A stretch of 64,000 nucleotides of DNA from Candidatus Alloenteromonas pullicola. Its GTDB lineage: Bacteria; Bacillota_I; Bacilli_A; RFN20; CAG-826. Below, piece by piece: positions 5,264 through 44,612 of this stretch. Positions within the stretch are counted from its first letter, which is position 1, and every line of letters begins with the position of its first letter. A program made the translations under genes and the position numbers. The stretch spans positions 10,540 to 74,539 of the forward strand of contig DVMV01000018.1 in assembly GCA_018714785.1 (NCBI GenBank), given 5' to 3'. The notes beneath the pieces were generated by a model. That model made no database searches. It was not told where the DNA came from and was given only the letters and a program-made list of their open reading frames with translations.

Positions 5264-5265
5264 AT

Positions 5266-26940: not shown

Positions 26941-28842
26941 TTATTGCTTCTCCGCTTTCCTCAATACGAGCTTGGAGGCATCGATGTTGAAGCAGGCCGA
27001 CTTGCTGTCGAAGCAAGAGGCATAGCCCGGGCACAGGACGCAGACGTAATCGGGGAACTCCGGCAGGTTGGCATATAGAACGGCGTTCTCGCCAAGCAGC
27101 GACTCGTTGACGCATTTGAACTTCATCGAGTCCTGCTTGTCCAACCCCTCAAGGCGCCCAAAGCGCCCCACTCTCTTTAGCAGCGTGAATGCGTCGAATG
27201 GTATCGTCAGCTCGTAATGCCCCGGCTCGTAATCGCCTTCTAGCTTAAGGCAATACCCGCCGAACTTGGCATAGCAAGCCCCGTCTTTTTCCTTCCTTAC
27301 ATCAGCGATGCAGGAATTGGAGGTGAATGGATAGGCGGCTATGAGCCGGTTCTTCAGCTTCTTGTCGTATAGTTCGCAAAGGGTGGGGTCTAGGTATAGA
27401 TCGACCTGGTCGCCCGGCTTGGCCTCCAGAAGCGGCAAATCAGCGGTCAGATAGGTCTTCAGCCCCGGGATGGAGAAATACATGAACCGGCTGCCCTTCT
27501 CGCCCTCGACCGACTGGATCGTCGCCTTTAGCTTAAGCGAGCCCTCCTTGCATTCTAGGCCGAATGCGTTGGCCGGTATCCGGAGGAAGACGTCGTTCTC
27601 GCCGCGGAAGCTCGGGAGCAGCCTGCTAAGCTTATCGCCGTCTAGCTTTATAGTTTCCTCGCCAAGCGTATACGTGCCATCCTTCCCGTTGAGGCGGGTG
27701 ACGACGAAGTTCTCGCCGACCAAGGCGGCGATGCGGCGCTTGCTGTCTTTATCAAACAGATGCAGATGCGTGGTGTGGAAAGTGACGGTCAGGCGGTCGC
27801 CCTCGCGAAGCTCCTTCCTGCCATCGAGCTTGGCGACGATTGGGATCTCGGTGCCTTCGATCTGGCAATAGGCGACGAGCTCCGACCCCAGCTTCTCGAT
27901 GACGTCGATGACGACCGGAATCGATTCGGCGCCATCAGCCGAGTCGACCTGGTATATCTCCTCGGGGCGCAGTCCAAGTATGACCTCTTTCCCGATGTAG
28001 TCGAGGTCGATGAGCTCGCGGATGGTTTTATCGTGAATCTTGATCTTGAAGGCGCTGCTGCCCTTGGTGATCAATCCATAGTAGGCGCCGTTCTCCTCGA
28101 CTATCCGGCAGTCGAAGAGGTTCATCTGCGGGGTGCCTAGGAAGGTGGCGACGAAGACGTTGGCCGGGTGGTCGTATAGCCTGGTCGGGGTGTCGACCTG
28201 CTGCACTACGCCATCCTTCATGACGACGATCTTCGAGCCCATGGTCATGGCCTCGGTCTGGTCGTGGGTGACGTAGACGAAGGTGGTCCCCAAGCGGCGA
28301 TGGAGTTTGGTTATCTCCGACCTCATCTGGACGCGCAGCTTGGCATCGAGGTTGGAAAGCGGCTCATCGAGGAGGAAGACCTTCGGCTCGCGGACAATCG
28401 CCCGGCCGAGGGCGACGCGCTGCCGCTGGCCGCCAGAGAGCGCTTTGGGCTTCCTAGAAAGGTAAGGAGTGAGCCCCAGCACCTCGGCGGCGGACTTGAT
28501 GCGGCGGTCGATCTCGTCTTTGTCCAGCTTGGCGAGCCTAAGGCCGAAAGCCATGTTCTCATAGACGGTCTTATGTGGGTAAAGCGCATAGTTTTGGAAG
28601 ACCATGGCTATGTCGCGGTCCTTCGGTGGCAGGTCGTTGACCACCTTCCCATCGATGTCGAGCTCGCCCGCGGTTATCGTCTCAAGCCCCGCGATCATGC
28701 GCAGGGTGGTTGACTTGCCGCATCCGGACGGGCCGACGAAGACCACGAAGTCCTTGTCGTCGATCTGCAGGTTGAGGTCGCTGACGGCCCTGACGCCGCC
28801 ATCGTATACCTTGTGGATGTGCTTTAGAGTTAGGCTGGCCAT
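26941..28842 (-). CDS. MsmK/MalK-type ABC ATPase with ~260-aa C-terminal extension of unknown function (Cys-rich end)
   Basis: Walker A GPSGCGKST, LSGGQRQRVALGRA, LLDEPLSNLD; canonical MalK C-terminal domain ends near LHLFDKDSKRRI (~aa 375); 633 aa total. Confidence 0.85.
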   Translation of the reverse strand: MASLTLKHIHKVYDGGVRAVSDLNLQIDDKDFVVFVGPSGCGKSTTLRMIAGLETITAGELDIDGKVVNDLPPKDRDIAMVFQNYALYPHKTVYENMAFGLRLAKLDKDEIDRRIKSAAEVLGLTPYLSRKPKALSGGQRQRVALGRAIVREPKVFLLDEPLSNLDAKLRVQMRSEITKLHRRLGTTFVYVTHDQTEAMTMGSKIVVMKDGVVQQVDTPTRLYDHPANVFVATFLGTPQMNLFDCRIVEENGAYYGLITKGSSAFKIKIHDKTIRELIDLDYIGKEVILGLRPEEIYQVDSADGAESIPVVIDVIEKLGSELVAYCQIEGTEIPIVAKLDGRKELREGDRLTVTFHTTHLHLFDKDSKRRIAALVGENFVVTRLNGKDGTYTLGEETIKLDGDKLSRLLPSFRGENDVFLRIPANAFGLECKEGSLKLKATIQSVEGEKGSRFMYFSIPGLKTYLTADLPLLEAKPGDQVDLYLDPTLCELYDKKLKNRLIAAYPFTSNSCIADVRKEKDGACYAKFGGYCLKLEGDYEPGHYELTIPFDAFTLLKRVGRFGRLEGLDKQDSMKFKCVNESLLGENAVLYANLPEFPDYVCVLCPGYASCFDSKSACFNIDASKLVLRKAEKQ

Positions 28843-28843
28843 A

Positions 28844-29740
28844 TTATTTCTCCTCCTTGTCCAAACCTTTGCCGACGAGGTCCTCCTCGTAGCGGCTGTT
28901 TATGTATTTGTCGTAACGCGAATAGCAGTAAAGCGAGTTTACCAAAGCGAAATGCGCGAAGCCAAACAGCACGCATATCGATAGGCAGATCATCTGCACC
29001 AGGAAAAACGGGATGAAAAGCAAGATGAAGAATATCCCGCCTATGATTAGGAAAGCCAGATTCAGCGGATACAGCACCACCGCGAAAAGCCCGCAATTCC
29101 TCAGGCTGTCCGACAATTTGAAATCGTATATAGACCCATAGCAAAGCAGATGTATCGCCATGAATTGCGCGCAAAGCACGATCAAAGCCATCAAAACCGC
29201 CACCACGATCTTCAAAGCCGAAGGGACGTTATCCATGCTGGGATAGATGCTTAGGTCGGCTATGAAAAGCGAGGCCGTTATGGCGCTTATCGCCCAGGAT
29301 AAGGCGGCTTCCTTGGCGTTGGATTTCATGCCCAGGAAGAAATCGCGGTAGAAAAGCGAGCCCTCTTGGTATATCAGGCCTTTCATCACGAAGAACAGGC
29401 CTGCTAAACCATAGAACATAGGCAGCGAGAGCACTAGCACGCCGGCCGATAGGATTAGCCCAAGCATCAGGATCAATGACGGCAAATCCCCGCCGGCTTC
29501 CTCACAGGCGGATATCGCCGATTGCGAATATGGCATATAGAGGAAGACGAACAGCAATAATGGCAAAGCGAAGATCGAGGTCAGCATCGAAAGGCAGACC
29601 AGGGAGAAGAATCGGTTCCTGAATATGTCGAAATAGGCCGCCACCCGGTTGGATGGAAGCTTGGGGTTGGGGTTCTTGGCCTCGCGGTTGAACAACCTAT
29701 AAAACGAGTCTCTTCTCATCTGCAAAAGCCTTGACCTCAT
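28844..29740 (-). CDS. Integral membrane protein, possibly YesL/DUF624-like (accessory to sugar ABC systems)
   Basis: Six or more hydrophobic helices; family assignment by context and composition only; start may be the internal Met 21 nt downstream. Confidence 0.4.
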   Translation of the reverse strand: MRSRLLQMRRDSFYRLFNREAKNPNPKLPSNRVAAYFDIFRNRFFSLVCLSMLTSIFALPLLLFVFLYMPYSQSAISACEEAGGDLPSLILMLGLILSAGVLVLSLPMFYGLAGLFFVMKGLIYQEGSLFYRDFFLGMKSNAKEAALSWAISAITASLFIADLSIYPSMDNVPSALKIVVAVLMALIVLCAQFMAIHLLCYGSIYDFKLSDSLRNCGLFAVVLYPLNLAFLIIGGIFFILLFIPFFLVQMICLSICVLFGFAHFALVNSLYCYSRYDKYINSRYEEDLVGKGLDKEEK

Positions 29741-30602
29741 CTAGGGTCGGCAAACTCGATATCGCCCCGACGCGCTGGGTGGCGATCGCCCCGGCGGCGT
29801 TGGCATAATGCAGCGCCTTGACTACATCCAACTTCGATATATCACCGCAGGCGTCGACCTCTGATAGAAACAACGAATAGAAGGCGTCGCCCGCTCCCGT
29901 GGTGTCGACCGGTTTGAGCGGGGTGGAGGGAGCGGAGTATTCCTTCCTTTCTAAATAGGCCTTTGACCCACTCTTCCCACAGCTTAAGACCAATAGCTGC
30001 CCAGGGCGGGTCTCGTATCCGGATGGGTAAAGTATCGCCTGCTCCTCGTCTGACATCTTGACGATGTCGAATAGCGGGACCAGGTCGCGGTATATGGCGA
30101 TAGCCTCCTCCTTGGAGGCGAAGATGTCGTCGCGGTAATTTACGTCGAAGGAGGTCGTGATGCCCCGCTTCTGGCATTCGGATGCGGCAAGGCGCAGGAA
30201 TTCCCTTCCGAAGTCGTAGCAGACCATAAGCGACCCGAAGTGGACGATATTCGGCTTCGAAGCGAGCAGCGCCTTGAACTCTTCGAAGTCTAGCAAGGCA
30301 TCGGTCATGTCCTCCCTATCGAAGCGAAAGCTGCGCTCGCCATTAACCAAGCTCACCTCGGCGATGGTGGTTTTCTTGCCATCTATGGTCTTAATGCTGA
30401 GGGGATCGAATCCGAACCCGGCGGCGAAGCCAAGGAGCGATTCGCCCTCCTCGTCGTCCCCCACCGAGCCGAAGAAGCCGACTTTGCATCCGACCTTAGC
30501 CATCCCGCAGGCGACGTTGAAAGGCGCCCCGCCGGGCTTGTCGATGTGCTTCTCGCCATCGATGAACCTATCGATCAGTATCTCTCCTGCGCAGATGATC
30601 AT
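29697..30602 (-). CDS. scrK: Fructokinase (PfkB/ribokinase family)
   Basis: PfkB signature DTTGAGDAF near the C-terminus, GG motif near the N-terminus; sits inside a fructan locus. Confidence 0.8.
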   Translation of the reverse strand: MIICAGEILIDRFIDGEKHIDKPGGAPFNVACGMAKVGCKVGFFGSVGDDEEGESLLGFAAGFGFDPLSIKTIDGKKTTIAEVSLVNGERSFRFDREDMTDALLDFEEFKALLASKPNIVHFGSLMVCYDFGREFLRLAASECQKRGITTSFDVNYRDDIFASKEEAIAIYRDLVPLFDIVKMSDEEQAILYPSGYETRPGQLLVLSCGKSGSKAYLERKEYSAPSTPLKPVDTTGAGDAFYSLFLSEVDACGDISKLDVVKALHYANAAGAIATQRVGAISSLPTLDEVKAFADEKRLVL

Positions 30603-30603
30603 A

Positions 30604-31563
30604 TCAAGCGGTCTCCCCCTTGAAGAATGTGGTTGGGATGGTGTAGACGTCGTCGATATCCTTTTGCCCCGTTATCCTCATGTTCAGGACCTCGACTACC
30701 TTTTTGGCCATCGCGGGGATATCCTGGACGACCGAGGTGAACGAAGGCGACTGGATCAAATCGTTCATGCAGCCATCGTAGGTGATTATCTTGACGTCAT
30801 CGCAAGACTTGCCGTTCCTTACTAGGACTCGGTAATAGGCGAAACCGTAGGCGTCTGAGGTGGCGAACACCGCATCCACATCCGGGAAGGACGCAAAGTA
30901 CTTCTCGGAGTAGCAATATTCCTCGCCGTGCTTGGATTCGTAGTATCCGGTCCTTTCTTCCATGCCGTGTTCCGAAGCGAAGTCGGAATAGGCGCGGTAG
31001 CGGTCGTAGACGAAGCTGGTGACGGCCGGCTTGCCGCCGAGGAACCCGATGCGCCTAGCACCTTGTTCCCAAAGGTAGGCAAGGGCCTTCTTTGTAGCCT
31101 CGTAGTTATCCGAGGTTATGGTGGGGACCCCACCTGCAAACCGCCTATCGATGGTGACGATCGGGAGGTTGGGGTCCATGCGGTCATAGAAATTGTGGGT
31201 TACGAAGATGATGCCATCGATCTGGCTCTTCTTGGCAAGCGATATGAAGCTTTCCTCCCTGGCCTTGTCGTTTCCAGAGTCGGTGAGCAGCAGCCTATAC
31301 CCTAGGGCATAGGCCTCGTCCTCTATCGCCTCGGTGATCTTAGAGAAGAAGGGGTGCGAGATCTTAGGAACGCACAGCCCTATCGTCATCGAGCGGTTGT
31401 ACTTAAGCGCCCGGCCGAGGGAGGAAGGCGAATAGGAAAGGTCGTCAATCGCCTTCTTGATCCTCTCGGCGCACTCCTCCGAGACATACCCGTTGTTGAA
31501 GTAGCGGGACACGGTGGATTTGCTGACGCCGGCTTTTTTCGCAACATCGATGATCGATGACAT
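30604..31563 (-). CDS. LacI-family transcriptional regulator (ScrR/FruR-like)
   Basis: HTH MSSIIDVAKKAGVSKSTVSRYFN plus sugar-binding domain; candidate binder of the 44559-44576 palindrome. Confidence 0.85.
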   Translation of the reverse strand: MSSIIDVAKKAGVSKSTVSRYFNNGYVSEECAERIKKAIDDLSYSPSSLGRALKYNRSMTIGLCVPKISHPFFSKITEAIEDEAYALGYRLLLTDSGNDKAREESFISLAKKSQIDGIIFVTHNFYDRMDPNLPIVTIDRRFAGGVPTITSDNYEATKKALAYLWEQGARRIGFLGGKPAVTSFVYDRYRAYSDFASEHGMEERTGYYESKHGEEYCYSEKYFASFPDVDAVFATSDAYGFAYYRVLVRNGKSCDDVKIITYDGCMNDLIQSPSFTSVVQDIPAMAKKVVEVLNMRITGQKDIDDVYTIPTTFFKGETA

Positions 31564-31581: not shown

Positions 31582-33402
31582 TTATTTTACCTGCCTTTTG
31601 CGCTTATATAGAACGACTAAGGCGACAATTGAGGCGGCGGCTATGCCAGCTAAGGCCAAGAGGAGCGCGTAATCGACGGCATTGTCCTCGTTTATCTTGA
31701 AGACCCCGCCTTCTGAAGCGGCCTCGACCCTCTGGCTGAGGTTGGCCATGGAAGCGTCGATCTTGGTCAACTGAACGGTGTTCTGGTAAATGGCGTCGCC
31801 GACCTCGTAGGTGCCATAGGAATAGTCGTCGGAGAAGTCGACAATCTCCCGGGCTTCCGGCGACAGTGCGGTGTAGGCGGTGACCAAAGCATTAAGCGAC
31901 GAGCTGACGCCGCAGTAGGAGAATCCGTTGTCGTAGATACGAGCCTTGGCGTAGTAATCGGTAACGAACGCGGCGGCTTCGCTCAAAGCGGTGGGCTCCG
32001 CGTCTTCTTCTAGGTGATACGAATCCTTGGCGACGCCGTTCTCGTTCCCTTGCGAGATCAAGTCGAGCTTAAGGGAGGGGTAAGCGGCATAATCGGTCCT
32101 TATCTCGTCGAAGAAAGCGTTGCCCCAATTTCCGCCGTGCTCGCAATCGGAAATGGCGATGCAGACCTTCTTCCCGGCAGCGGAAGGAACCTCAAAAATG
32201 TGGCGAACCATCGTGGCGTTGTAGGTATCGCGCCGGACAATGTTGTTAACGTTGTCGCCAAATAGCTGATTTTGATGCGAATAGAGAACCTCACCATCGG
32301 GATAGGATATCAGTTCGACTTTTGCGGTGCGTCCTCCAAGCTTAAGCGAGAACAAACCAAGATCGTTCATTTTGAACGGCGAGGAAATCAGGCGATACTT
32401 CGCGTCTTCGGCACCAGAGGATGCGCATCCATCGGTGAGGCCGCCTGCAAAGAACTTGTCCCCGGTCACATTGAACGGAGCCGGAAGCATTTCGGCGTTA
32501 ACAACGAACGTTTTCTGAGAAGAAACGCTATTTTTGAAATCGATATAATATCTATCCTCGCTGCCAGTGGTATTCTGCCGACTTGAAAAGGATATATCAT
32601 AAGCCCAATTGGAAAGCTCGTCATCAATCTCAAATCCTTCCTTGAAGTAATTCGGGAGATTGTCGGCAACAAACGAATACTCTGGGTTTGTATCGTAAAC
32701 GTCTACACAATATGCCGTGGATAGAGTATTGGAGTTAGTGTCAGACCCATATCCAGGAAGGTTGACGTTGGCAAGGTTCATTCGATGAACACCAACCGAT
32801 GCTGCCGCCTCCTCAATAGTCTGATTGACACGCAAAGCTCCGAGGGCCACGAAGCCATAATCGGACGTGGCGTTATCGGTTATTTTCAAATAGAGGTCGC
32901 CGTCGAACCCTTCTCCAAGATCAACAACTCTCATCATCATGTTCGATGATATTTTCGGATCGCTGAATAAGTTATTAACGACGGTAGCCTTCACTATTTC
33001 CGTGTTTGCATCAACAATCTCGACCTTGCAGGCCTCCGTATTGCGCGCAGCCCCGAAAGTGAATGTAATGTATCTTTGATTTTGGTGCCAGGGCTTGGAG
33101 TTGACCGTTCCAGTCCAGTCTTCGCGAATGCTCCCGTTATAGAATTCGTCAAGCGCGTTGAAGAATCTATAATTCCAGAACGTACCGTAACGACCGGTGT
33201 CCCATTTGTCAGCACTGTTTTCAGTGTATGAACTGTTTGGATCGCTGATGACATCGAAATTGTCCTCGTTGAAAGGCATGTAGATGTTGGTCGGAGTGGC
33301 TTCGGCGGCGGAAACGCCGATAGAGGTGGAACCGTGGCCGATAAGTGCCAACGGCGATAGCAGCAATGCGGCTGCCGGGATGATAAACAGTGCTTTTTTC
33401 AT
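31582..33402 (-). CDS. Surface protein with repeated CBM-like beta-sandwich modules, signal peptide and C-terminal TM/KRKRQVK anchor (candidate fructan-binding protein)
   Basis: Modules of type FKMNDLGLFSLKLGGRTAKVELISYPDGEVLY shared with the next gene and with the N-terminus of the GH32 lipoprotein; C-terminus LLLALAGIAAASIVALVVLYKRKRQVK. Confidence 0.55.
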   Translation of the reverse strand: MKKALFIIPAAALLLSPLALIGHGSTSIGVSAAEATPTNIYMPFNEDNFDVISDPNSSYTENSADKWDTGRYGTFWNYRFFNALDEFYNGSIREDWTGTVNSKPWHQNQRYITFTFGAARNTEACKVEIVDANTEIVKATVVNNLFSDPKISSNMMMRVVDLGEGFDGDLYLKITDNATSDYGFVALGALRVNQTIEEAAASVGVHRMNLANVNLPGYGSDTNSNTLSTAYCVDVYDTNPEYSFVADNLPNYFKEGFEIDDELSNWAYDISFSSRQNTTGSEDRYYIDFKNSVSSQKTFVVNAEMLPAPFNVTGDKFFAGGLTDGCASSGAEDAKYRLISSPFKMNDLGLFSLKLGGRTAKVELISYPDGEVLYSHQNQLFGDNVNNIVRRDTYNATMVRHIFEVPSAAGKKVCIAISDCEHGGNWGNAFFDEIRTDYAAYPSLKLDLISQGNENGVAKDSYHLEEDAEPTALSEAAAFVTDYYAKARIYDNGFSYCGVSSSLNALVTAYTALSPEAREIVDFSDDYSYGTYEVGDAIYQNTVQLTKIDASMANLSQRVEAASEGGVFKINEDNAVDYALLLALAGIAAASIVALVVLYKRKRQVK

Positions 33403-33420: not shown

Positions 33421-35586
33421 TCAAAGCGTGTTTATTGCTTCGGCGTAAGGTATTTGAACCTCCTCGCCGTTTTGAACCACGGTGTCGTAGTTGCCCTCGA
33501 CCGCTACCGGATCGGGGTTATTGACAACGACGTCATCGAAGAACGCGACGCCCCAAGATAGGCCTGCAGCCAAGACATTGTCGCGGAGCTCGACATATAG
33601 GTAACGACCAAGCAAGGACGAGCAATCAGCGACATACTTAGTCATGCTGAGGCGGCAACCATCTTTGATAAGCGGGAAGTTCCCGTCGTTGAACTCGGTG
33701 TTCTCATAGACGGCGACCTCTTCCCCGGTCGAGGCGTCGATTAGCGCAAGCGAAGCTGCCCTACCACCGAGCTTGAAGGTTATGAATCCTGATCCAGATA
33801 GTTTGAACATAGTCGAACGAATTGAATAGCCATCGGATTCAGCAACTCCGCTGTTCCAACCATTGAAGAAGTATTCCCCGGTCTTGTTGAACGGGATTTC
33901 CTCGGCCCAGAAAGTCGTCTCGTTAGAAATTGGGTTCCCAGATATGGCTCCGGACTGGGTCCAGCCATCCAAATTGCCGGTCTCAAACCCTCCATTCTGG
34001 ATGTCGGGCTCGTTGAATTCGTCTAGGACCTCTAGCAAATACGATCCATCAGAGCTCTGACCATAAGCGTCGGTGGCAGTAAAGCCAACCTCGTATTTCC
34101 CCGATGCCACGTTAAACGACGATGCGTCAAAGTCCGCAACCGGTTCCCCGTCATGGGAGACCGAAACAATCGATAATTCAATCGCTGAAGTTGCGGTGTA
34201 ATCGTCGTAAGTGCCGGTTTGCGCGGCATACGAAGTCAAGTCGATGGTCGAAGGAATCACGTTGAACGACTTCTCCACAACGGTTGGAGCATTGCCGGCG
34301 AAGGGGAACGACATCCCGCCGTTGTAAAGAGCTTTGTAAGCCGGTGCTGCGACGGTGTCGTCTGTGGCCGCGGCGAACTCGCGGAGCGCGGCTACGCCGT
34401 CCTTGCCCTCCTGCTCGGAGAGGTTAATGTCGAAGCCATCGACCTGGGCAAACCCAAATCCCGACGTACCGTAATCGACGATGGTGAAGTAAAGGGTCCG
34501 ACCGATATACTCCGACATATCGACGTAGTAGGTAATGAAGGACTGGGCAAGCTCTGGATCCTTGAACCCGGTGTTGTAGAAGCGGGCGAGCTCATCGCCA
34601 GTGGCGGCATCGTTTATCCCGACGTAGACCTCGGCGTTGTAGGCACCCATCATGAACTTGGCGTAGGATTTGCCTTCCCCGGCATCTATCACCTGGAACT
34701 TCTCGCTGCGCATCGTCCCGGTGAGCGATTCGGCATGGTTGAGGCCGTTGAGGAAGTAGTTCCCCTCGGCATGGTACTGACGGTTGCCCCAATACATCTC
34801 GGTCGATGAGGATATGAGCCCGTCTTTGTCGAAGGCCTGTCCGGCAATCGGCTTCCAATATGAGGCATCGCCGGTCTCGAAGCCGCCGTTGCGGAGCTTG
34901 GTTACCGGGGTCTCGGCATCGATGTCCTCGTCGGCATGGGCAAGCAGGAAATCCGCCCGCTCCACCAGCACATCGTTTCTTTCCGCAGCGGTCTGAAGCA
35001 CCTTTATGTCATCGATGTTGAAGAAGGAGTAGTCGGTGTAGTCGCTGCCGGCGTCCTCATCGACGAACTTGATGTAGATCGCCTCGTCGAGGTGGTCGCT
35101 CAAATCGACGACGTTGGGGACCAATTCCGAGGATATGGTCGTGCCGTTCCAAACGGAGTTGGTTAGCTTGGTCAGCTTCGTCTTGTTGTTATTGGCGTAG
35201 AACTCAAGCGGCTGCTCCGAATCGACGGAATAGAACTCGACGTAGCACTTCGACTGGTCTTTCATCGCCCCGATATCGAGCGCGATCTGCCCGATGCCGC
35301 CGAGGATGAACGGATCGGAGGTCAATGTCCCCTTGAAAGACGGCAAGGAACCAACCCCACCGACGTAGGAGTAATCGCCTTCCTTGTCTATGTGCTTCTG
35401 GTCCGAATAGGTGTCGGCGTCGCTGACGTCGTCCTCCGATAGCCCGTTGATGGTCCAACCCTCGAGACCCGATTCGAACGATCCGTTCTCGATGGTCTGG
35501 TTGTACTTGGGCGCGGTGTCGGTTTCGCCTTGGCAGCCGCAAAGCGCAAGGGCGGCCAAAGGCAGGGCTAATAGATTGATTCTCAT
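33421..35586 (-). CDS. Surface lipoprotein with three or four tandem CBM-like modules (NGxFExG...W start signature; FKLxGxGxxxxKLGGR core)
   Basis: Lipobox LALCGC; repeated NGSFESGLEGW / NGGFETGDASYW / NGGFETGNLDGW module starts; FKLSGSGFITFKLGGRAASLALIDASTGEEV. Confidence 0.55.
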   Translation of the reverse strand: MRINLLALPLAALALCGCQGETDTAPKYNQTIENGSFESGLEGWTINGLSEDDVSDADTYSDQKHIDKEGDYSYVGGVGSLPSFKGTLTSDPFILGGIGQIALDIGAMKDQSKCYVEFYSVDSEQPLEFYANNNKTKLTKLTNSVWNGTTISSELVPNVVDLSDHLDEAIYIKFVDEDAGSDYTDYSFFNIDDIKVLQTAAERNDVLVERADFLLAHADEDIDAETPVTKLRNGGFETGDASYWKPIAGQAFDKDGLISSSTEMYWGNRQYHAEGNYFLNGLNHAESLTGTMRSEKFQVIDAGEGKSYAKFMMGAYNAEVYVGINDAATGDELARFYNTGFKDPELAQSFITYYVDMSEYIGRTLYFTIVDYGTSGFGFAQVDGFDINLSEQEGKDGVAALREFAAATDDTVAAPAYKALYNGGMSFPFAGNAPTVVEKSFNVIPSTIDLTSYAAQTGTYDDYTATSAIELSIVSVSHDGEPVADFDASSFNVASGKYEVGFTATDAYGQSSDGSYLLEVLDEFNEPDIQNGGFETGNLDGWTQSGAISGNPISNETTFWAEEIPFNKTGEYFFNGWNSGVAESDGYSIRSTMFKLSGSGFITFKLGGRAASLALIDASTGEEVAVYENTEFNDGNFPLIKDGCRLSMTKYVADCSSLLGRYLYVELRDNVLAAGLSWGVAFFDDVVVNNPDPVAVEGNYDTVVQNGEEVQIPYAEAINTL

Positions 35587-36980
35587 AGGGTTTCACCTCC
35601 ATATGTCTCGAGGGAAAGCCCCTCGATGCTTAGCTTCCCGAGGAAGCATATTGAGCTTTCGCCGTTGCCGTAGAACTGGCTGGAGAAAGCATAAAGACCG
35701 TCATCGATCAGCATGTCGATCAGGCAGCCGTCGACCAGGATGTCGAAGCGGAGCTCGGAGGAAGGCCGGACCTCGATGTAGCGGGTATCCTCCTTGGTTC
35801 CGTCTTTGCTGTATATCTCCTCTTCCATGCCTTTGCGCTCGACCTTAAGCAAGCTCCTATCCTTGGAATAGGAAACGGAGAACCCGCCGTCGAGGACGAA
35901 GCTCCAGTCGGAAGAGGTATCGACGGCGAACTTTATGCGCTTGCAATCGCCGGTTGGCAGATCGATCTTCTTTATGCCATCTTGGCAGGCGAGGTTGCCA
36001 TACTCGGCATGCCCCGTTTCGTACTTCTTAAGGCCATCCGGGAAAGACTGCTTGAGCAGAGGCGGCATAAAGGAAAGCCGGCGCGGCAAAACCAGCGACC
36101 CGGCATAGCCGTCTTTGGCGGTTGGATAGTTCCTATCCCACATCGCCTCAAAAGCGGTGAGCAGGAACTCGTTTCCATTCGACAACGTTTGGGCGGCGTA
36201 GAAGTCAAACCCATGGTCGAATTCGGTCTCCTCTCCGACCGGCTCAAAACGCCCGGACCTAAGATCGGCGCGCCCATAAACATAGACGGAGCTATGGATG
36301 TTCTGGAAGCGGTATGGGTCGGCCGATTTCCTAAACTGCGGAGAGAAGATCAGATAGGCATCGTCCTTGCCATCGAAGGGGAAGATTATGTCGGGGCATT
36401 CCATGATCCCCTCGCCGGTGAGGTCGCTGTGGTAGAACTCGGAGACGAACTCAAACCGCTCGCCATCCTTAGATTTGAACAGCAATATCGAGGAGCCTTT
36501 GTCCAAGCAACGGCATCCGGCGAGGATGTAGATGTTTCCATCCCTAACGAAAGCCTTGGGATCCCTGAAGTCTTTGCGCGAATACCGGCTTGGCAGAATA
36601 TCCGGATCGATGACCGGGTTCTGCGGGAATTTCTCGAAATTGCGGCCGTCTTTGCTTTTGGCAAGGCACTGCACCTGCTTCCCTTCCTGCGCCCCGGTGT
36701 AATAGGAATATATCGTCCCATCCACCACGATCGAGGAGCCGGAGAAGCAGCCCCATGGCAGTTCATATTGTTCTGTCGGCTTAAGCGCGATTCCGTCTTC
36801 TATGAACTTGACGCCATCGCCGGAAACGAAGTGGAGCCAATGCATCGGCCCCCACTCCGGCTTATATGGATAATGCTGGGCATAAAGATGATAGACGCCA
36901 TCCTTAAAGCAGAATCCGTTTGGATCGTTTATCCAGCCCTTCATGGGGGTTATGTGGAACAAAGGTCTTTTTATCGTCAT
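35583..36980 (-). CDS. Cytoplasmic glycoside hydrolase family 32 (beta-fructofuranosidase / sucrose-6-phosphate hydrolase / exo-inulinase type)
   Basis: Start re-called at MTIKRPLFHITPMKGWINDPNG (GGAGGAGG RBS, ATGA overlap); canonical WINDPNG, FRDP, ECP blocks; no signal peptide. Confidence 0.85.
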   Translation of the reverse strand: MTIKRPLFHITPMKGWINDPNGFCFKDGVYHLYAQHYPYKPEWGPMHWLHFVSGDGVKFIEDGIALKPTEQYELPWGCFSGSSIVVDGTIYSYYTGAQEGKQVQCLAKSKDGRNFEKFPQNPVIDPDILPSRYSRKDFRDPKAFVRDGNIYILAGCRCLDKGSSILLFKSKDGERFEFVSEFYHSDLTGEGIMECPDIIFPFDGKDDAYLIFSPQFRKSADPYRFQNIHSSVYVYGRADLRSGRFEPVGEETEFDHGFDFYAAQTLSNGNEFLLTAFEAMWDRNYPTAKDGYAGSLVLPRRLSFMPPLLKQSFPDGLKKYETGHAEYGNLACQDGIKKIDLPTGDCKRIKFAVDTSSDWSFVLDGGFSVSYSKDRSLLKVERKGMEEEIYSKDGTKEDTRYIEVRPSSELRFDILVDGCLIDMLIDDGLYAFSSQFYGNGESSICFLGKLSIEGLSLETYGGETL

Positions 36981-39022
36981 TTCCCCTCCTCCAATAGGTA
37001 TAGGCTCGCGTCGTGCAGCGTCGCTTCCCCGCCATCGGCGAAGAAGGATATCCCGTCGCTGCCTTCGCTTGGGTAGGCTATCCCGCTCATGGTGAGGTAG
37101 CCGCCATTCACGAACACCTCGATTGAGCTCTTGTCGAGGAAGCAATCGAGCTCGATGTCGCCGTTCTCGTCGGGGCTGACCACGGCATAGCGCAGCCCGT
37201 CATCCTCCACCCCGGCATCGGATTTGATCTCCAATCCGGAGTTGGAACGGTCGAAGACCAAGGCGCCCAGCGAGCCGTCGTAATAGACCTTGACCGCCTC
37301 ACCGGTTCCCTCGAACAGGTTGAGCCCGGCTTTCCCGCTTCCTAGCGAGGAGACGTTTATCTTGCACTTAACCCTGGCCGCGGCCCCGTTGCCTATAAAG
37401 GCGGATGAGGAGGCATCGGGCACCGAAATCGGATCGCCGAACAGGGTATCGACCTCCTCGATCGGCTTCTGGTATATATGCCCATCGACCAAGGTTATCT
37501 CACGCGGCAAGGTCGCCTCGCCCGCGGTCCCGTAGACCGCCGAGGGGTAGTTGCGGCTCCACATGTTCATCCAGGCCATCAGGATCTGCCTGTCTCCTAG
37601 ATCGAGTATCTGGGTGGCGTAGAAGTCGAATCCCTTGTCAAGCTCCTGCAGCGAATCGACGTCGGGGACGAACTCCCCGGTCGAGAAATCCATCTCGCCA
37701 ACCAGGTAGGCGACCGAATGCAGGTTCTGGAACTCGCCGAGCTCATCGCTTCTAACCGACTGAGGGGAGGTGATTATGACGTCCTTCCCGCCGAGGCTGA
37801 CGTAATTCGGGCATTCGAGCATCCCGTCGCCGGTGACTGTCGTCGAATAGGATTTTCCAACATAGGCAAACGACGCCTCGCCGGTTTGCTTATATAGGTA
37901 AACCGACCCGCCAGGGCCCTCGTTCTTCCCGCCGATGACGGCATAGACGTCGCCGTCGTGGAGGAAGCAATAGGGATCGCGGAAATCGGTTATCCGGCTT
38001 TCCCCGCGCATCGAGGAGTCAATGACAGGATTGGCCTGGCGCTTGGAGAAATTGACACCATCGTAGCTCGTGGCCATGGCCTGCTGCTGCACGCCGCCTT
38101 CCCCCACCGCGGTGTAAAGAAGGTTCAGCGAGCCGTCCTCTCCGACGAACGCCCCTCCGGAAAAGCAGCCGTTGAGGTCATAGGGCATATCCGGGGCGAG
38201 GGCCACCGGCAAAGTCTCCCAGTGCAAAAGGTCGGTTGATACAGCGTGCCCCCAATGCATCAGGTCCCAAGCGGGCGAATAGGGGTTGTGCTGATAGAAC
38301 ATGTGGTAGGCGCCTTCGTAGTAGATGAAGCCGTTTAGGTCGTTCATCCACCCGATCTCGGGCATCAGGTGGTAGGTGTGGCGATAAGGCGAATCCGGCA
38401 GCTCCGGCGCCGCCTTCTCTATGTAGGAGTTGGCGTCGCCGACCAAGGTACCGTCGTCGTCTTCCCCAAGGTAGTCGAACCTGATGTCATCGGCCAGGAT
38501 GTAGTTGTAGCCATCGCTCCCGCCATCATCGTCGACGAAGCGGAGGAAGCACTCGCGGCCGGCGAATTGGCCAAGCTCGGTGCTTTGTACCCTCATCCTC
38601 CGGCTCGGAGAGTTCTCGTTGAATAGCCGATTGGTTATGGAAAGCAGCGTCTCGCCGGTTTCGGCATCGATTAAATCGATGTGGCAGAGGTCGGGGTTCT
38701 TCATGGCGCCGAGGCTCATGGTCAGCCTGGTGTTCTGGCCGATCTTGAAGCGGGTGCTGTCCATCTTCCCGGTCGCGGAAAGATCGGATTCGGAATGGGA
38801 GGTATCGAGGTAGAAGTCGCCCGAGGCATTTATCCTCATGGCATCGGACCCGGCCACCGTGATGGCGGCATCGGAGAAAGCGGTCCCCTCGATGGAGGAG
38901 AAGCCGGTCAGGTCTCCCTGCTCGAAATCGCCGTTTACTATCCGGCAGTCCTCCTTAGCCTGACCGCAGGAGGCGGCGCTTAAGGCCAAGACCGGCATTA
39001 TCAAAGCAAGACGGCGAGACAT
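36977..39022 (-). CDS. Extracellular GH32 lipoprotein (levanase/inulinase type) with N-terminal CBM-like module
   Basis: Start at MSRRLALIMPVLALSAASCG (lipobox); N-terminal module FKIGQNTRLTMSLGAMK...DAETGE; catalytic blocks WMNDLNG, FRDPY, MLECPNY. Confidence 0.85.
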   Translation of the reverse strand: MSRRLALIMPVLALSAASCGQAKEDCRIVNGDFEQGDLTGFSSIEGTAFSDAAITVAGSDAMRINASGDFYLDTSHSESDLSATGKMDSTRFKIGQNTRLTMSLGAMKNPDLCHIDLIDAETGETLLSITNRLFNENSPSRRMRVQSTELGQFAGRECFLRFVDDDGGSDGYNYILADDIRFDYLGEDDDGTLVGDANSYIEKAAPELPDSPYRHTYHLMPEIGWMNDLNGFIYYEGAYHMFYQHNPYSPAWDLMHWGHAVSTDLLHWETLPVALAPDMPYDLNGCFSGGAFVGEDGSLNLLYTAVGEGGVQQQAMATSYDGVNFSKRQANPVIDSSMRGESRITDFRDPYCFLHDGDVYAVIGGKNEGPGGSVYLYKQTGEASFAYVGKSYSTTVTGDGMLECPNYVSLGGKDVIITSPQSVRSDELGEFQNLHSVAYLVGEMDFSTGEFVPDVDSLQELDKGFDFYATQILDLGDRQILMAWMNMWSRNYPSAVYGTAGEATLPREITLVDGHIYQKPIEEVDTLFGDPISVPDASSSAFIGNGAAARVKCKINVSSLGSGKAGLNLFEGTGEAVKVYYDGSLGALVFDRSNSGLEIKSDAGVEDDGLRYAVVSPDENGDIELDCFLDKSSIEVFVNGGYLTMSGIAYPSEGSDGISFFADGGEATLHDASLYLLEEGK

Positions 39023-41355: not shown

Positions 41356-42257
41356 TTGAGACCTGTGAAGGATACCCCTTCGATAATGTATTTCTGGGCG
41401 AAGATGTAGACCAAGGCGATGGGGATGGTCGAGAAGGTCAATGAGGCCATGATCATGCCGAGGTCCTTGGGGGTGTTCGTGTTGACCAACTGCAGGAATA
41501 CCTGAAGCGGCTGCATGGCCGGGTTGGGGAACATCAGCTGGGCGAAGATGTACTCGTTCCACTGCCCCATGAAGGTGAAGATCGCAACGGTGGCGAACAC
41601 CGGCTTGGAAAGCGGGAGGATCATCTTGAAGAAGACGCCGATCCTCGAGCACCCGTCGATCCTGGCTGCCTCCTCGATCTCGATTGGCATGCCGAGGAAG
41701 TACTGCCGGAACATGTAGGTGTAGAACAGCGAGCCGAAGCCGGGGAGCAGGTAGCCAAGGACGCTCATCGGCTCCTCCAGTAGGCCAAGGTAGTAGAGGA
41801 TGATGTAGGTCGGGACGACCGAGGTCTCGATCGGAACGATCATCAGGATGAGGATGATGGTCGTCATGGCCTTGTTGCCGGGGAACTTGAACCGGGCCAA
41901 GGCATAGCCGGCGAAGGAGTTGATCAGCAGCACGCCGAGGATGGTCACGCCGCAGTAGATTATGGAGTTAAGGATCGACCTGCCGAAGCCGTCGAACGAG
42001 TTGAACAGCTTCTCATAGCTAACGAACCAGGTGCTGATGTCGAAGCTAGGTGGCAGGAAGGTCATTATCGACCCAAGCTGGGCGGAGATGGTGTCGCCGT
42101 CCTTGAAGGAGTTGTCGACCATCCAGACGATCGGGAAGAGGAAGATGAAGCACAGGACGGCCAGCCCCAGCACGATCAGGGCTTTCTTCCCTATCTTGCC
42201 GAGGTTGGGCTTGCGGTGGATCTTCGCGGAAGCGATTTTGCCGTAGGTTGGTTCCAT
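41352..42257 (-). CDS. Sugar ABC transporter permease (MalG-like)
   Basis: EAA motif EEAARIDGCSRIGVFFKMILP; multi-TM. Confidence 0.85.
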   Translation of the reverse strand: MEPTYGKIASAKIHRKPNLGKIGKKALIVLGLAVLCFIFLFPIVWMVDNSFKDGDTISAQLGSIMTFLPPSFDISTWFVSYEKLFNSFDGFGRSILNSIIYCGVTILGVLLINSFAGYALARFKFPGNKAMTTIILILMIVPIETSVVPTYIILYYLGLLEEPMSVLGYLLPGFGSLFYTYMFRQYFLGMPIEIEEAARIDGCSRIGVFFKMILPLSKPVFATVAIFTFMGQWNEYIFAQLMFPNPAMQPLQVFLQLVNTNTPKDLGMIMASLTFSTIPIALVYIFAQKYIIEGVSFTGLK

Positions 42258-42261
42258 TGCT

Positions 42262-43197
42262 TTAAGCCTCGTTGTCCCCGCCTAGGACCTTCCTAAGTGT
42301 CAAGCTCACCGCGGCGATGATGACGGTGTAGACCATGGCGATGGCCGAGCTGTAGCCGACGTCGCGGTATTCGACGCCCTGCTTGTAGATGTATAGGGAC
42401 ATGGTAAGCGTTGAGTCCAACGGGCCGCCGTCGGTCATGATCATCGGCTGGACGCAGATGCGGAACGCCCCGATTATCATCGTTATCAAGACGAATACCA
42501 TGGTCGGCTTCAGGCCCGGCAGGGTGACGTTGAGGAACTGCTGCCATTTGCTCGCCCTATCGATCTCGGCCGCCTCGTAGAGGTCCTTGGGGATGTTCTT
42601 CAATCCCGAGAGGAGGATAAGCATCTGATAGCCAGCCCCCTGCCACGCGGAGATGAAGATGATGCAGCCCATGGCCTGATCGGGGTCCTCAAGGAACATC
42701 ATCGGGTTGCCGCCCAAAGCCAGAATGAGGGCGTTGATGAGGCCCTCCTGCGGGTTGAGCAGGTTCATCCAAAGCATCGAGGTGACGGCGAGGCTCAGCA
42801 TGACCGGGCAGAAGAAGGCCCAGCGGAGGAACGTGTTGAACCGCTTTATGTGGTTGAGTATCAATGCCAGCCCCAAGGCGGTCCCAAACTGCAGCGGGAT
42901 GACGCATCCGACGAATATCAGCGTGTTCGTCAACGCCTTTCCGATGGAGGCGTCCTGGAACAGCCTCACGAAATTGTCGAATCCGATGAAGTTCACCGAA
43001 TCGAGCCGAAGCATGTTGGCGTCGGTGAAGGCATAGGAGAGCGAAATGGCGATGGGAAGGAAGACGAACACCACGGATAAGAGGAAGCAGGGGGCGAGGA
43101 AAGATAGCCCCGCGATCGTCTCGCGGAGGCTATATTCCGTCCCGAAGAGCCGGTACTGGCCCTTGGACTTGGTTTTGGTGATGTCGCCGATTCGCAT
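42262..43197 (-). CDS. Sugar ABC transporter permease (MalF-like)
   Basis: EAA motif YEAAEIDRASKWQQFLNVTLPG; multi-TM. Confidence 0.85.
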   Translation of the reverse strand: MRIGDITKTKSKGQYRLFGTEYSLRETIAGLSFLAPCFLLSVVFVFLPIAISLSYAFTDANMLRLDSVNFIGFDNFVRLFQDASIGKALTNTLIFVGCVIPLQFGTALGLALILNHIKRFNTFLRWAFFCPVMLSLAVTSMLWMNLLNPQEGLINALILALGGNPMMFLEDPDQAMGCIIFISAWQGAGYQMLILLSGLKNIPKDLYEAAEIDRASKWQQFLNVTLPGLKPTMVFVLITMIIGAFRICVQPMIMTDGGPLDSTLTMSLYIYKQGVEYRDVGYSSAIAMVYTVIIAAVSLTLRKVLGGDNEA

Positions 43198-43198
43198 A

Positions 43199-44545
43199 TT
43201 AGGCCCTGGCGTTGTCGACTTTGGTCATCTGCTCGGTGATCTGCTTTTCCAAATCGTAGTCGGAGTCGTTGACCTTCAGCTTGATGTACTTCAGCACCTC
43301 GCCATAGGCGTCCTTCAGCTGCGGGTACTTGACCATGTGAGGACGGGTGTAGGTGTTGGCTTTGAGGTAGTCGGCGAGATCCTTCTCCGGCCCGGACTGC
43401 AAGTCCTCAAGAGAAGAGAGGAGCTCGACGTTGGTCGGGTAGGTTCCGATGGCGTTGTAAAGCATCTCGGAGCTCGAGGCGCCGCAGAGGTATTTGAGGA
43501 CCAGGCTCGAGGCCTCGAGGTTCTTGCTGCTCTTGGTGATGCCGAAGCCGAACGAGCCGCAGGGGGAGGCGATGATGTCGCCCTTATTGCCGTTGCCGTC
43601 TTCGTAGACCGGGTAAGGCATGATGCCGTAGTTACCCTTGACGGCGCTATTGCCCTTCTTGATGGTCCTGGCATCCCAGGGGCCATAGACCTCAAACGGA
43701 ACCACTCCCTGCGAGAAGGCCTTGTCGTTGGTCCCATTGTAGACCCAAGGAGAATCCGATCCGGATATTCCATCATCGGAATAGAATTGCTCAAGCTGCT
43801 TTATGCCATTGATGGCTTCGTCGGAGGTAAGCGCTTCGGTGACGTGATTCTCGGTGCCAAAGGTCCCGCCCGCGGAATACACAAGGGGCGAATAAAGGTA
43901 CATATACCCATCGTCGCCGAATCCGGCCTTGAGGTCGATCTGATAGGGCTGCCCCACTTCCTTTAGCTTCTCTTGAGCTTCGTGAATGTCGTTCCAGCTC
44001 CAGGGGCTTTCATAGGTCGGGAAATCCGCGTCGGTGTATCCCGCCGCGCGGAGCATGGTCTTGTTGTAGTAGACGCCGCCCGGGGCTTCCATCGGGGATA
44101 GGAAATAAAGCTCGGCGTCAATGGTGCCCTGCTCGATGACCGAGTCGACGAAGGAGTTCTTCTCCTCGTCGGTGATGTAATCATCGAATGGGATGATAAT
44201 CCCGGCGTTGGCTTTGGCGGTGACGTCGGAGGAGTCGACGGCGATGATGTCCGGCAGCTTGTTGGTCAAAACCGAGCCGTCGATCTTGGTCTCCAATGTG
44301 GAGCCATAGAAGGAGATGCTCATCTTGACGGTCTGGCCGTTTTTCAGGGTGTGGCCCTCGTTGTTGAACTGTGTCTGGATCTGCTTATAGACCTTGCCCT
44401 CGTCGTCCTGCTCGTTCTTGTGGACCCAAATCGTGACGATCTTGGCTCCCGTGGGGTCGGTATCGTCCTCGCCTCCGCAGGAAGTCAGGGGCGCCGCGGC
44501 CGCTAGGCAAAGCAAGGCCGCGAAGGAGAAGTATTTTGATTTCAT
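43199..44545 (-). CDS. ABC transporter solute-binding lipoprotein (probable fructo-oligosaccharide binding)
   Basis: Signal peptide plus LTSC lipobox; 448 aa SBP-like; first gene after promoter/operator; GGAGGAAA RBS. Confidence 0.8.
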   Translation of the reverse strand: MKSKYFSFAALLCLAAAAPLTSCGGEDDTDPTGAKIVTIWVHKNEQDDEGKVYKQIQTQFNNEGHTLKNGQTVKMSISFYGSTLETKIDGSVLTNKLPDIIAVDSSDVTAKANAGIIIPFDDYITDEEKNSFVDSVIEQGTIDAELYFLSPMEAPGGVYYNKTMLRAAGYTDADFPTYESPWSWNDIHEAQEKLKEVGQPYQIDLKAGFGDDGYMYLYSPLVYSAGGTFGTENHVTEALTSDEAINGIKQLEQFYSDDGISGSDSPWVYNGTNDKAFSQGVVPFEVYGPWDARTIKKGNSAVKGNYGIMPYPVYEDGNGNKGDIIASPCGSFGFGITKSSKNLEASSLVLKYLCGASSSEMLYNAIGTYPTNVELLSSLEDLQSGPEKDLADYLKANTYTRPHMVKYPQLKDAYGEVLKYIKLKVNDSDYDLEKQITEQMTKVDNARA

Positions 44546-44558
44546 CGGTTTCCTCCAT

Positions 44559-44576
44559 TGCGGGAACGTTCCCGCA
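44559..44576. promoter_or_regulatory. 18-bp perfect palindrome TGCGGGAACGTTCCCGCA (LacI-family-type operator) between the -10 box and the RBS of the fructan operon
   Basis: Read directly; 7 nt downstream of the -10 hexamer. Confidence 0.5.
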
Positions 44577-44583
44577 TGCTTAG

Positions 44584-44612
44584 ATTATATAGTCCGATGT
44601 AAGGGGTTTCAA
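44584..44612 (-). promoter_or_regulatory. Sigma-A-type promoter TTGAAA-N17-TATAAT for the fructan operon
   Basis: Minus-strand reading CTGTTGAAACCCCTTACATCGGACTATATAATC; hexamers and spacing match consensus. Confidence 0.5.

Follow-up and report, generated by a model that had tools for sequence, protein, structure and literature searches.

How might a gut bacterium that is probably devoid of a cell wall capture a plant polysaccharide, cut it, and import the pieces? This question is raised by a 17.6-kb locus on contig DVMV01000018.1, which lies within a stretch of 64,000 nucleotides that was analysed as a whole and is called the window here. Proteins of the locus region match exactly the GenBank records HIU45190-HIU45205 from a metagenome-assembled genome (MAG) of Candidatus Enteromonas (now Alloenteromonas) pullicola, obtained from chicken faeces; the genus was placed by its authors in the GTDB order RFN20, family CAG-826. 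Twelve genes encode three glycoside hydrolases of family 32 (GH32-A, GH32-B, and GH32-C), two non-catalytic surface proteins (surfA and surfB), an ATP-binding cassette (ABC) importer, a LacI-family repressor, and a sugar kinase. That they form a fructan operon can be held with great confidence. The reading preferred here, with a probability of roughly 70%, is that of a Gram-positive-type polysaccharide utilisation locus (PUL) for plant fructans, most likely with beta-2,1 linkages (inulin or graminan-type), in a probably wall-less RFN20/CAG-826 host.

The glutamate nucleophile of GH32-A

Membership of family GH32 was taken to mean that both the five-bladed propeller (PF00251) and the beta-sandwich (PF08244) score above cut-off. 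All three enzymes carry both domains, with 169.8, 275.1, and 247.1 bits for the N-terminal and 46, 93, and 22.6 bits for the C-terminal model (cut-off 21.9). Each also has the catalytic triad, with a glutamate replacing the nucleophilic aspartate in GH32-A. The residues of this enzyme are Glu305 (in WMNEPHAP), Asp438 (FRDA), and Glu501 (WELP); in Arabidopsis cell-wall invertase, the residue aligned with Glu305 is the nucleophilic Asp of WMNDPNG, and the usual RDP and ECP are changed to RDA and ELP.

The glutamate is not a sign of decay, because WMNEP is found in 116 of 120 GH32-A homologs, the three catalytic residues are invariant across an alignment of 48 homologous sequences, and Glu is coupled to an N-terminal LamG domain. 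Among 89 loci, GH32 domains preceded by LamG carry Glu 92 times and never Asp, whereas of those without LamG 84 have Asp and a single one has Glu. On account of this coupling, the LamG-bearing enzymes represent a distinct GH32 clade. An AlphaFold2 model of GH32-A (pLDDT 89.5) has the canonical GH32 fold and superposes on GH32 structures with template modelling (TM) scores of 0.75-0.87.

A nucleophile of this kind has been described for endo-inulinases. In the endo-inulinase INU2 it is Glu43 within WMNEPN, an E43D mutant of which keeps about 5% activity, and the Glu of WMNEPN has been called a hallmark of endo-inulinases. In EnIA, an endo-inulinase from Arthrobacter (2439 bp), the catalytic residues are Glu323, Asp460 (within RDF), and Glu519. 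With about 813 versus 777 amino acids and catalytic residues at 323/460/519 versus 305/438/501 (positions for EnIA come from a review, not from an alignment), EnIA and GH32-A have the same N-terminal offset of ~300 residues and the same spacing, and neither has RDP. GH32-A can additionally be aligned from end to end, at 33% identity, with the LamG-GH32 core of a fructanotransferase-like protein from Paenibacillus (E = 1e-119). Since the Glu and the layout of GH32-A match both EnIA and the fructanotransferase core, an inulin-type substrate is considered likelier than levan.

The LamG domain itself finds its best match in the Protein Data Bank (PDB) in a LamG-type S-layer protein (4qvs). A paper on Anaerostipes enzymes labels extracellular GH32s as bearing CBM66, a family of carbohydrate-binding modules (CBMs), and this assignment was tried for the LamG domain and rejected: no CBM66 chain was matched at E <= 10 in the PDB, where the CBM66 of SacC was assumed to be present, and the Anaerostipes enzymes so labelled keep the Asp.

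A repeated, probably carbohydrate-binding module on three surface proteins

Six copies of a ~165-residue beta-sandwich, referred to as module X, occur in three proteins of the operon. One is found in GH32-B, three in surfA (amino acids ~31-205, 229-396, and 529-695, the last two copies being separated by a region of helices and beta-strands), and two in surfB (~50-205 and 263-447, followed by a C-terminal region without matches). BLAST, alignment, and hidden Markov model domains all related amino acids 27-208 of GH32-B to the three surfA and two surfB segments, and the module starts with an NGxFExG..W motif. A preliminary description of this DNA had listed a CBM-fused GH32 and multi-CBM surface proteins; beta-sandwich modules are indeed there, and what had been missed is that they belong to one repeated family, probably CBM38.

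By sequence, the module X profile had no significant match in Pfam or the PDB (CBM_4_9 appeared below threshold only); CBM66 was not matched by the profile in the PDB and was absent among the top 50 Foldseek matches of surfA. The AlphaFold2 model of surfA (pLDDT 88.9) resembled a porphyran-binding CBM (8xmz, TM score 0.71), CBM61 (0.62), and CBM4-2 (0.54). A word-indexed search with the six-module alignment gave 7 fragments only, and exhaustive searches of representative sequences and searches with full-length surfA were used instead. The exhaustive profile search, covering 1.84 billion representatives, yielded 1535 proteins (E <= 1e-3), in which as many as ten stretches per protein were matched. 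Catalytic Pfam domains were nearly absent from 43 of the best matches (one GDSL lipase and one GFO/IDH/MocA), where FIVAR and Ig-like domains were the commonest companions. Of 80 module X loci in species-representative genomes, 72 had a GH32 within 10 kb, 67 a LamG-GH32, and 62 a Glu-type GH32.

In Paenibacillus, Cohnella, Priestia, and Streptomyces, module X is fused to LamG-GH32(Glu) in the order of 2-5 modules, LamG, GH32, and a final module. CBM38 was defined on the fructanotransferase of P. macerans (AAG47946.1), where it spans residues 32-389, forms two beta-sandwiches, and binds inulin and levan in the micromolar range. In a 1498-aa homolog from P. xylanilyticus, module X lies at 55-217 and 240-403, i.e. 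where CBM38 is defined, and the 90%-identity cluster of this protein holds an entry named cycloinulo-oligosaccharide fructanotransferase. The surfA modules are 38-42% identical (E = 1e-33) to those of the P. xylanilyticus protein, which served as a proxy for the founding sequence of CBM38. Module X was at first viewed as unclassified, a view that was dropped for CBM38 after the Paenibacillus fusions and the published CBM38 description were considered; on these grounds, it is very probably CBM38.

Which fructan is used, and how is it cut?

Several observations weigh against an inulin-degrading unit as outlined above. GH32-A is no closer to the fungal INU2 (3RWK, E = 7e-17) than to plant invertases (2e-32), and in a Foldseek search with the GH32-A model 3RWK came at rank 19, in a list that did not separate endo- from exo-enzymes. 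In BLAST comparisons, GH32-A is 32-37% identical to stand-alone and fructanotransferase-like paralogs alike, which is not decisive. Module X cannot settle the linkage, because CBM38 has been reported to bind levan as well as inulin. The module family is moreover not exclusive to fructan loci, since a relative stands beside a GH66 gene in another genome (see below). Finally, the U-tract of the terminator is weak (UAUUCGUUU), so that some read-through into the next operon is conceivable. As GH32-A is not nearer to INU2 than to exo-enzymes and is equidistant from both paralog types, its motifs tip the balance only slightly towards an endo-acting enzyme for inulin-type fructan.

The preliminary description had likened the locus to the levan PUL of Bacteroides thetaiotaomicron. 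A levan (beta-2,6) locus, as a monoderm counterpart of that PUL with GH32-A as endo-levanase, would agree with the dual binding of CBM38, with the mixed-linkage fructans that cereal feed contains, and with GH32-B and GH32-C, the specificities of which are unreadable from sequence. The analogy is nevertheless not specifically supported. The endo-levanase BT1760, which has a bowl-shaped pocket for beta-2,6 chains, carries an Asp nucleophile (Asp41) in a different motif (GFVGDPMP), whereas GH32-A has the Glu and the N-terminal extension of the endo-inulinase/fructanotransferase type and a catalytic layout that fits EnIA. No solved endo-levanase was found near the top of the GH32-A sequence matches, LevB1 being aligned over 87 residues only (E = 5e-10), and the GH32-A clade includes fructanotransferase-like enzymes that act on inulin. 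Levan as the substrate is therefore regarded as unlikely.

Another explanation restricts the locus to the scavenging of short fructo-oligosaccharides and sucrose by three exo-acting GH32s, with the surface proteins just retaining oligosaccharides near the importer. GH32-B (WMNDLNG, RDP, ECP) and GH32-C (WINDPNG, RDP, ECP) resemble exo-acting beta-fructofuranosidases and sucrose-6-phosphate hydrolases (solved relatives 7VCO, 7BWB, and 3PIG), and GH32-B is probably exo-acting to judge from its sequence. The nearest solved structures of GH32-A are exo-enzymes too, and extracellular Anaerostipes GH32s with binding modules act on kestose and nystose. Those enzymes, however, keep NDPNG with Asp and so belong to a different clade, and a nucleophilic Glu combined with E-[LV]-P at the acid/base site has so far been described for endo-inulinases only. 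Five tandem modules on two surface proteins and one more on an enzyme are also hard to justify for sugars with a degree of polymerisation of 2-4, which makes pure scavenging improbable.

That GH32-A is a transferase making cyclic inulo-oligosaccharides or other fructan products, to be imported later and opened by GH32-B or GH32-C, is very unlikely despite its full-length match to the fructanotransferase-like core and the WMNE-HAP and WELP motifs common to both, since in five Paenibacillus loci and one Cohnella locus the fructanotransferase-like forms read WMNEAHAP and have modules fused on both sides, whereas GH32-A reads WMNEPHAP and has none, and loci L033, L034, and L035 hold beside such forms separate LamG-GH32 paralogs of ~770 amino acids with WMNEPHAP, like GH32-A in length and motif (the 32-37% identity to both forms does not discriminate).

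Proposed route of fructan use

For the preferred inulin-type PUL, the following route is proposed. Polymer would be captured at the membrane surface by surfA (lipid-anchored, three modules) and surfB (transmembrane, two modules) through their probable CBM38 modules. The lipoprotein GH32-A would then cut the chains internally to fructo-oligosaccharides, and the lipoprotein GH32-B, with its module X and Asp-type catalytic domain, would trim chain ends. Import of the oligosaccharides would be carried out by a solute-binding protein (SBP), two permeases, a DUF624-like membrane protein, and the operon's own MalK-type ATPase. In the cytoplasm, GH32-C would hydrolyse the oligosaccharides, and the PfkB kinase would phosphorylate fructose. 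The LacI repressor would sit on a palindrome between the -10 box and the ribosome-binding site (RBS) and be released by a fructan-derived sugar; it would be autoregulated, because its gene lies inside the operon.

Beyond this locus, it is tentatively suggested that a stand-alone LamG-GH32(Glu) together with a non-catalytic multi-CBM38 surface protein makes up an uncharacterised inulin capture-and-cleavage unit widespread in Firmicutes, to which RFN20 bacteria may have added extra regulator docking surfaces by a tripled MalK regulatory domain.

Extent and control of the operon

The features of the locus are listed in Table 1. Its 12 open reading frames (ORFs) lie head to tail at 26941-44545, which the promoter extends to a unit of 17.6 kb (26941-44612). 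Four junctions are ATGA or 1-nt overlaps, four are gaps of 1-4 nt, two are gaps of 18 nt, the largest in the operon, and one is an overlap of 44 nt. Gene starts were chosen by signal peptides and by an ATGA or 1-nt overlap with the preceding stop codon. At least four further metagenome contigs (L003-L006) carry these 12 genes in unchanged order but within different surroundings, and their surfA homologs are 41-49% identical.

Table 1. Genes and control elements of the fructan operon, with positions in the window
Feature	Position	Strand	Basis
SBP, lipoprotein, 448 aa, lipobox LTSC	43199..44545	-	SBP_bac_1 E = 6.6e-26
ABC permease 1, 311 aa	42262..43197	-	BPD_transp_1
ABC permease 2, 301 aa	41352..42257	-	BPD_transp_1
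GH32-A, LamG + GH32 surface lipoprotein, 777 aa	39022..41355	-	Laminin_G_3 + GH32N + GH32C
GH32-B, surface lipoprotein, N-terminal module X (aa ~27-208) + GH32	36977..39022	-	GH32N E = 1e-81
GH32-C, cytoplasmic GH32, 465 aa, without signal peptide	35583..36980	-	GH32N + GH32C
surfA, non-catalytic lipoprotein, 721 aa, three module X copies	33421..35586	-	internal repeats; AlphaFold2 model
surfB, non-catalytic surface protein, 606 aa, two module X copies	31582..33402	-	repeats; cleavable signal + C-terminal transmembrane helix
LacI-family repressor, 319 aa	30604..31563	-	LacI helix-turn-helix + Peripla_BP_1/3/4
PfkB-family sugar kinase, probably fructokinase, 301 aa	29697..30602	-	PfkB E = 6e-37
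Polytopic membrane protein, DUF624/YesL/MusI-like, 298 aa	28844..29740	-	ortholog-level DUF624 match
MalK/UgpC-type ABC ATPase, 633 aa, three tandem OB/TOBE domains	26941..28842	-	ABC_tran + OB_MalK + TOBE_2; hhalign
Sigma-70-type promoter TTGAAA-N17-TATAAT	44584..44612	-	11/12 positions match; top-scoring site of scanned region
Putative LacI operator TGCGGGAACGTTCCCGCA, perfect 16-bp palindrome core	44559..44576	.	palindrome + ortholog conservation; LacI binding predicted
Terminator hairpin directly 3' of ATPase stop codon	26892..26934	-	-22 kcal/mol, z = -3.75

Pfam and NCBIfam support all named families except surfA, surfB, and the 298-aa membrane protein, for which no Pfam match above cut-off was found. 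The LacI protein has the layout of LacI/GalR regulators, with an N-terminal helix-turn-helix and a periplasmic-binding-like effector domain, and matched no NCBIfam equivalog above cut-off. The kinase reached 127.9 bits with PfkB, and its best NCBIfam model was fructokinase PRK09434 (138 bits versus a cut-off of 450). The 44-nt overlap is that of the membrane-protein ORF with the 3' end of the kinase gene (29697-29740) and measures 1-50 nt in the orthologs. Because the membrane-protein sequence as called has no exact match in the protein collection, the deposited annotation probably uses another start.

Promoter-like sites as a whole were not more numerous in the region than in shuffled sequence. 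At the place equivalent to the promoter, TTGNCN-N17-TATAAT was read by eye, unscored, upstream of the orthologous operons L003 and L005. Candidate counts for internal promoters and terminators did not exceed the shuffled expectation either, and none is therefore claimed. The perfect 16-bp palindrome (GCGGGAACGTTCCCGC, 44560-44575) follows the -10 box and precedes the RBS; this promoter-proximal copy is the sole one in the window. The orthologous operons L003-L006 have a palindrome (TGYGGRAACGNTNCCRCA) at the same position between -10 box and RBS, in the versions TGTGGGAACGCTACCACA, TGTGGGAACGATACCACA, TGTGGAAACGTTCCCACA, and TGTGGGAACGTGCCCACA. A palindrome with a central CG, as for LacI/GalR operators, is kept in all five loci, which gives the operator good comparative support.

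At the other end, none of 200 shuffles folded as well as the terminator hairpin, and upstream of the operon a neighbouring alpha/beta hydrolase gene has a terminator-like site of its own (44683..44664). The packed genes, the promoter with its palindrome, the hairpin, and this upstream site show the 17.6-kb unit to be real and well bounded. The corresponding points of the preliminary description were confirmed throughout: a co-directional 12-gene operon with short or overlapping junctions, the promoter, an operator, a terminator at ~26900, three GH32 enzymes (two lipoproteins and one cytoplasmic, from Pfam and signal-peptide calls), and the SBP, two permeases, LacI regulator, and PfkB kinase.

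In three of the orthologous promoters, a palindrome resembling a catabolite-responsive element (cre) overlaps the -35 box or lies just 3' of it (L004 ~700-720, TGACAAAGCGCTTTCA; L005 ~715-735, TGACAAAGCGCTTACA; L006 ~720-740, GGAAAGCGTTTTCA). The window has a degenerate version at ~44598-44612 (TGAAACCCCTTACA) in which the central CG is missing, and catabolite control may have been lost or weakened at this promoter. Rfam and tRNA scans of the window found no RNA elements.

Importer and ATPase

Among proteins of solved structure, oligosaccharide binders come nearest to the SBP (E = 9e-15 at best), and its lipobox Cys is kept in the orthologs; from its sequence, it appears to be a binding protein of a generic oligosaccharide type. 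An accessory role in the importer is presumed for the 298-aa membrane protein. This protein shows a faint match to MusI_fam (E = 3.5e-4, 20.5 bits versus a cut-off of 160). Its earlier designation as YesL-like is backed by one positional ortholog and not by the protein itself: against the DUF624 threshold (PF04854, 24.2 bits), the ortholog in L003 reaches 26.7 and that in L004 16.9 bits, while the window protein and those of L005 and L006 have no match.

The ATPase had been described as MsmK-type. In many Firmicutes, MsmK is a single ATPase that is encoded elsewhere and is common to several importers. The window protein does belong to the MalK/UgpC family, as amino acids 1-371 cover the full UgpC and MalK models (UgpC in NCBIfam, 485.6 bits versus a cut-off of 432), but it is encoded in the operon and has 633 amino acids against ~370 in a typical MsmK. 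The additional 262 residues past amino acid 371 hold two extra regulatory domains, so that such domains lie at 236-371, 372-505, and 506-633. The repeats were invisible to internal BLAST and were shown by profile-profile comparison alone: in hhalign, with profiles of five or six sequences, the regulatory domain matched 372-505 with 97% probability (E = 3e-11), and 372-505 matched 506-633 with 82% probability (E = 1e-5), the third copy being more degenerate. All four syntenic orthologs (L003-L006, 618-696 aa) have the extension as well, whereas the ATPase of a Clostridia locus (L002), with 414 aa, lacks it. The MalK regulatory domain docks regulators, and by analogy the extra domains may add regulatory contacts. 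The ATPase of a neighbouring operon (19616-21058, minus strand, 480 aa) is oversized as well, through an N-terminal extension and two insertions in the MalK regulatory domain; enlarged ATPases of sugar ABC importers may be typical of the host lineage.

Host and surface anchoring

A comparative study predicted that CAG-826 lacks peptidoglycan synthesis and that the order RFN20 lacks the srtA/B sortases, and the host is thus probably wall-less. This predicted absence of peptidoglycan and sortases would account for an anchoring by lipid and transmembrane helices, and it is a more specific reason than a monoderm envelope. Lipoprotein signals with a conserved Cys were found in the SBP, GH32-A, GH32-B, and surfA. 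The preliminary statement that lipoproteins and transmembrane anchors are used was right in the former respect, with four such signals, and needs to be narrowed in the latter, as a C-terminal transmembrane anchor is present in surfB only. This protein has a cleavable signal peptide, a C-terminal transmembrane helix, and a basic KRKR tail, and GH32-C has no signal peptide in the window or in any ortholog. The same secretion and anchor pattern, including the helix and basic tail of surfB, was seen in all four orthologous operons.

The C-terminus of surfB (31582-31750) resembles the end of a sortase sorting signal without LPXTG; this motif was not found in the protein, and its match to Gram_pos_anchor was sub-threshold (E = 0.23). 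Judging by its sequence, it may be a relic of a sorting signal that has turned into a plain membrane anchor in a sortase-less lineage. The GC content is 0.497 across 32001-34000 (surfB and the end of surfA) compared with 0.55-0.61 elsewhere, and the 90%-identity cluster of surfB has 2 members compared with 44-77 for the other operon proteins looked up. The low GC and the small cluster suggest that surfB is the fastest-evolving gene of the operon.

Related and neighbouring loci

A search with surfA revealed a family of 'hypothetical' proteins, ~720-770 amino acids long and devoid of Pfam domains, in MAGs that bear the labels Tenericutes, Bacilli, Clostridia, and Oscillibacter. Clostridia and Bacilli that are more distant (L001, L002, L007, and L009) have another gene order, but a surfA-like gene still directly adjoins the LamG-GH32 gene. 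This pairing of a surfA-like binding protein with LamG-GH32 occurs widely across Firmicutes.

Giant secreted enzymes of 1300-2400 amino acids were encountered in Paenibacillus, Cohnella, Priestia megaterium, and Streptomyces (L033-L044, L048, L057, L059, L065, L073, L084, and L088), and some of these module-LamG-GH32 proteins have a second, Asp-type GH32 at the N-terminus. In locus L008 (10001-14950), a 1041-aa protein with five module X copies has a GH66 (dextranase family), an AraC regulator, and an ABC importer as neighbours, and the vicinity contains no GH32. The specificity of module X may vary within the family.

The operon is flanked by chromosomal housekeeping genes (gatA/B, ligA, pcrA, asnS, and tsaD) and by more glycan operons. 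Downstream, a second co-directional glycan run on the minus strand (10068-26750, promoter region 26751-26890), possibly one long operon, encodes two GH43, an SBP, two permeases, the 480-aa ATPase, two Big_2 surface proteins, a GH36, a SASA esterase, a LacI regulator, and a HAD hydrolase. Upstream of this run, a perfect palindrome (CTATAACGTTATAG) lies inside a promoter-like site (TTGACT-N17-TATCCT), and a second inverted repeat (TATAACG...CGTTATA) is also present. Further away, at 88-9930 of the window, genes for a GH65 phosphorylase, a GDSL esterase, an 844-aa protein with a weak CBM_X2 match, and a divergent DeoR regulator are found, together with three ORFs without Pfam match.

Relevance and comparison with known systems

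Inulin is among the most widely used prebiotics in people and poultry, and gut degraders of long-chain inulin, like the machinery they employ, are poorly known outside Bacteroides and Bifidobacterium. The LamG-GH32 with Glu nucleophile and its probable CBM38 partners, common in gut Clostridia and Mollicutes-like Bacilli, represent a candidate clade. In the literature searched, coverage of which was incomplete, no paper characterising this clade in gut bacteria was found. If the capture-and-cleavage unit tentatively suggested above is real, wall-less RFN20 gut bacteria would be primary degraders of long-chain inulin, and in monoderms the unit would take the functional place of a surface endo-enzyme and its SusE/F-type binding proteins. 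A lineage predicted to be without wall and sortases can, as the locus shows, still display a complete glycan-degrading apparatus via lipid and transmembrane anchors. Current models are extended by this to an uncultured group and are not overturned.

According to a definition that Sheridan et al. reportedly gave in 2016, a Gram-positive PUL brings together at one genomic site a glycoside hydrolase, a transporter for carbohydrates, and a transcriptional regulator. GH32s, ABC importer, and LacI are co-located in this way in the window, and a PUL made of monoderm parts, as which the preliminary description presented the locus, is a concept that had already been described. The fructan loci of Roseburia, Eubacterium rectale, and Anaerostipes (PMC7833758), which are Gram-positive PULs of gut Firmicutes, likewise have co-directional glycoside hydrolases, an ABC importer, LacI, and a sugar kinase, and they combine module-bearing extracellular enzymes with a cytoplasmic GH32. 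In contrast to these, the window locus adds two non-catalytic multi-module binding proteins and its own ATPase, and it is lipid- and transmembrane-anchored instead of cell-wall-anchored. The characterised GH32s of Anaerostipes and Roseburia keep the Asp nucleophile, whereas GH32-A does not.

With the levan PUL of B. thetaiotaomicron (BT1754-1765) the locus has its proposed logic in common, namely surface binders, a surface endo-enzyme, oligosaccharide import, internal exo-GH32s, a fructokinase, and a dedicated regulator. It differs in that SusC/D, an outer membrane, and a hybrid two-component sensor are all absent; among the 12 products, not one matched the SusC or SusD families in Pfam or NCBIfam.

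As for GH32-A, EnIA (Arthrobacter sp. S37, EC 3.2.1.7) and INU2 (PDB 3RWK) have the same Glu nucleophile in WMNEP, and the acid/base Glu of INU2 is followed by an aliphatic residue (EVP) as in GH32-A (ELP). EnIA is a secreted soil enzyme, whereas GH32-A is a lipoprotein in a gut operon. The cycloinulo-oligosaccharide fructanotransferase of P. macerans probably shares the LamG-GH32(Glu) unit and module X, to judge from the Paenibacillus homolog that clusters with an entry of that name. In Paenibacillus, modules and catalytic unit are part of one giant secreted protein of 1300-2100 amino acids, whereas the window locus has modules on two separate, anchored, non-catalytic proteins and adds the Asp-type GH32-B.

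The ATPase agrees with MalK, MsmK, and UgpC in its nucleotide-binding domain and one OB/TOBE domain within amino acids 1-371 and differs from them in its two further, degenerate regulatory copies and in the place of its gene in the operon. All parts of the locus come from known families (GH32, probably CBM38, ABC importer, LacI, and PfkB), whereas their combination has not been described previously. New are the pairing of non-catalytic multi-module binding proteins with a stand-alone Glu-type LamG-GH32, the full lipid and transmembrane anchoring in a lineage predicted to be without wall, and the tripled regulatory domain of the ATPase.

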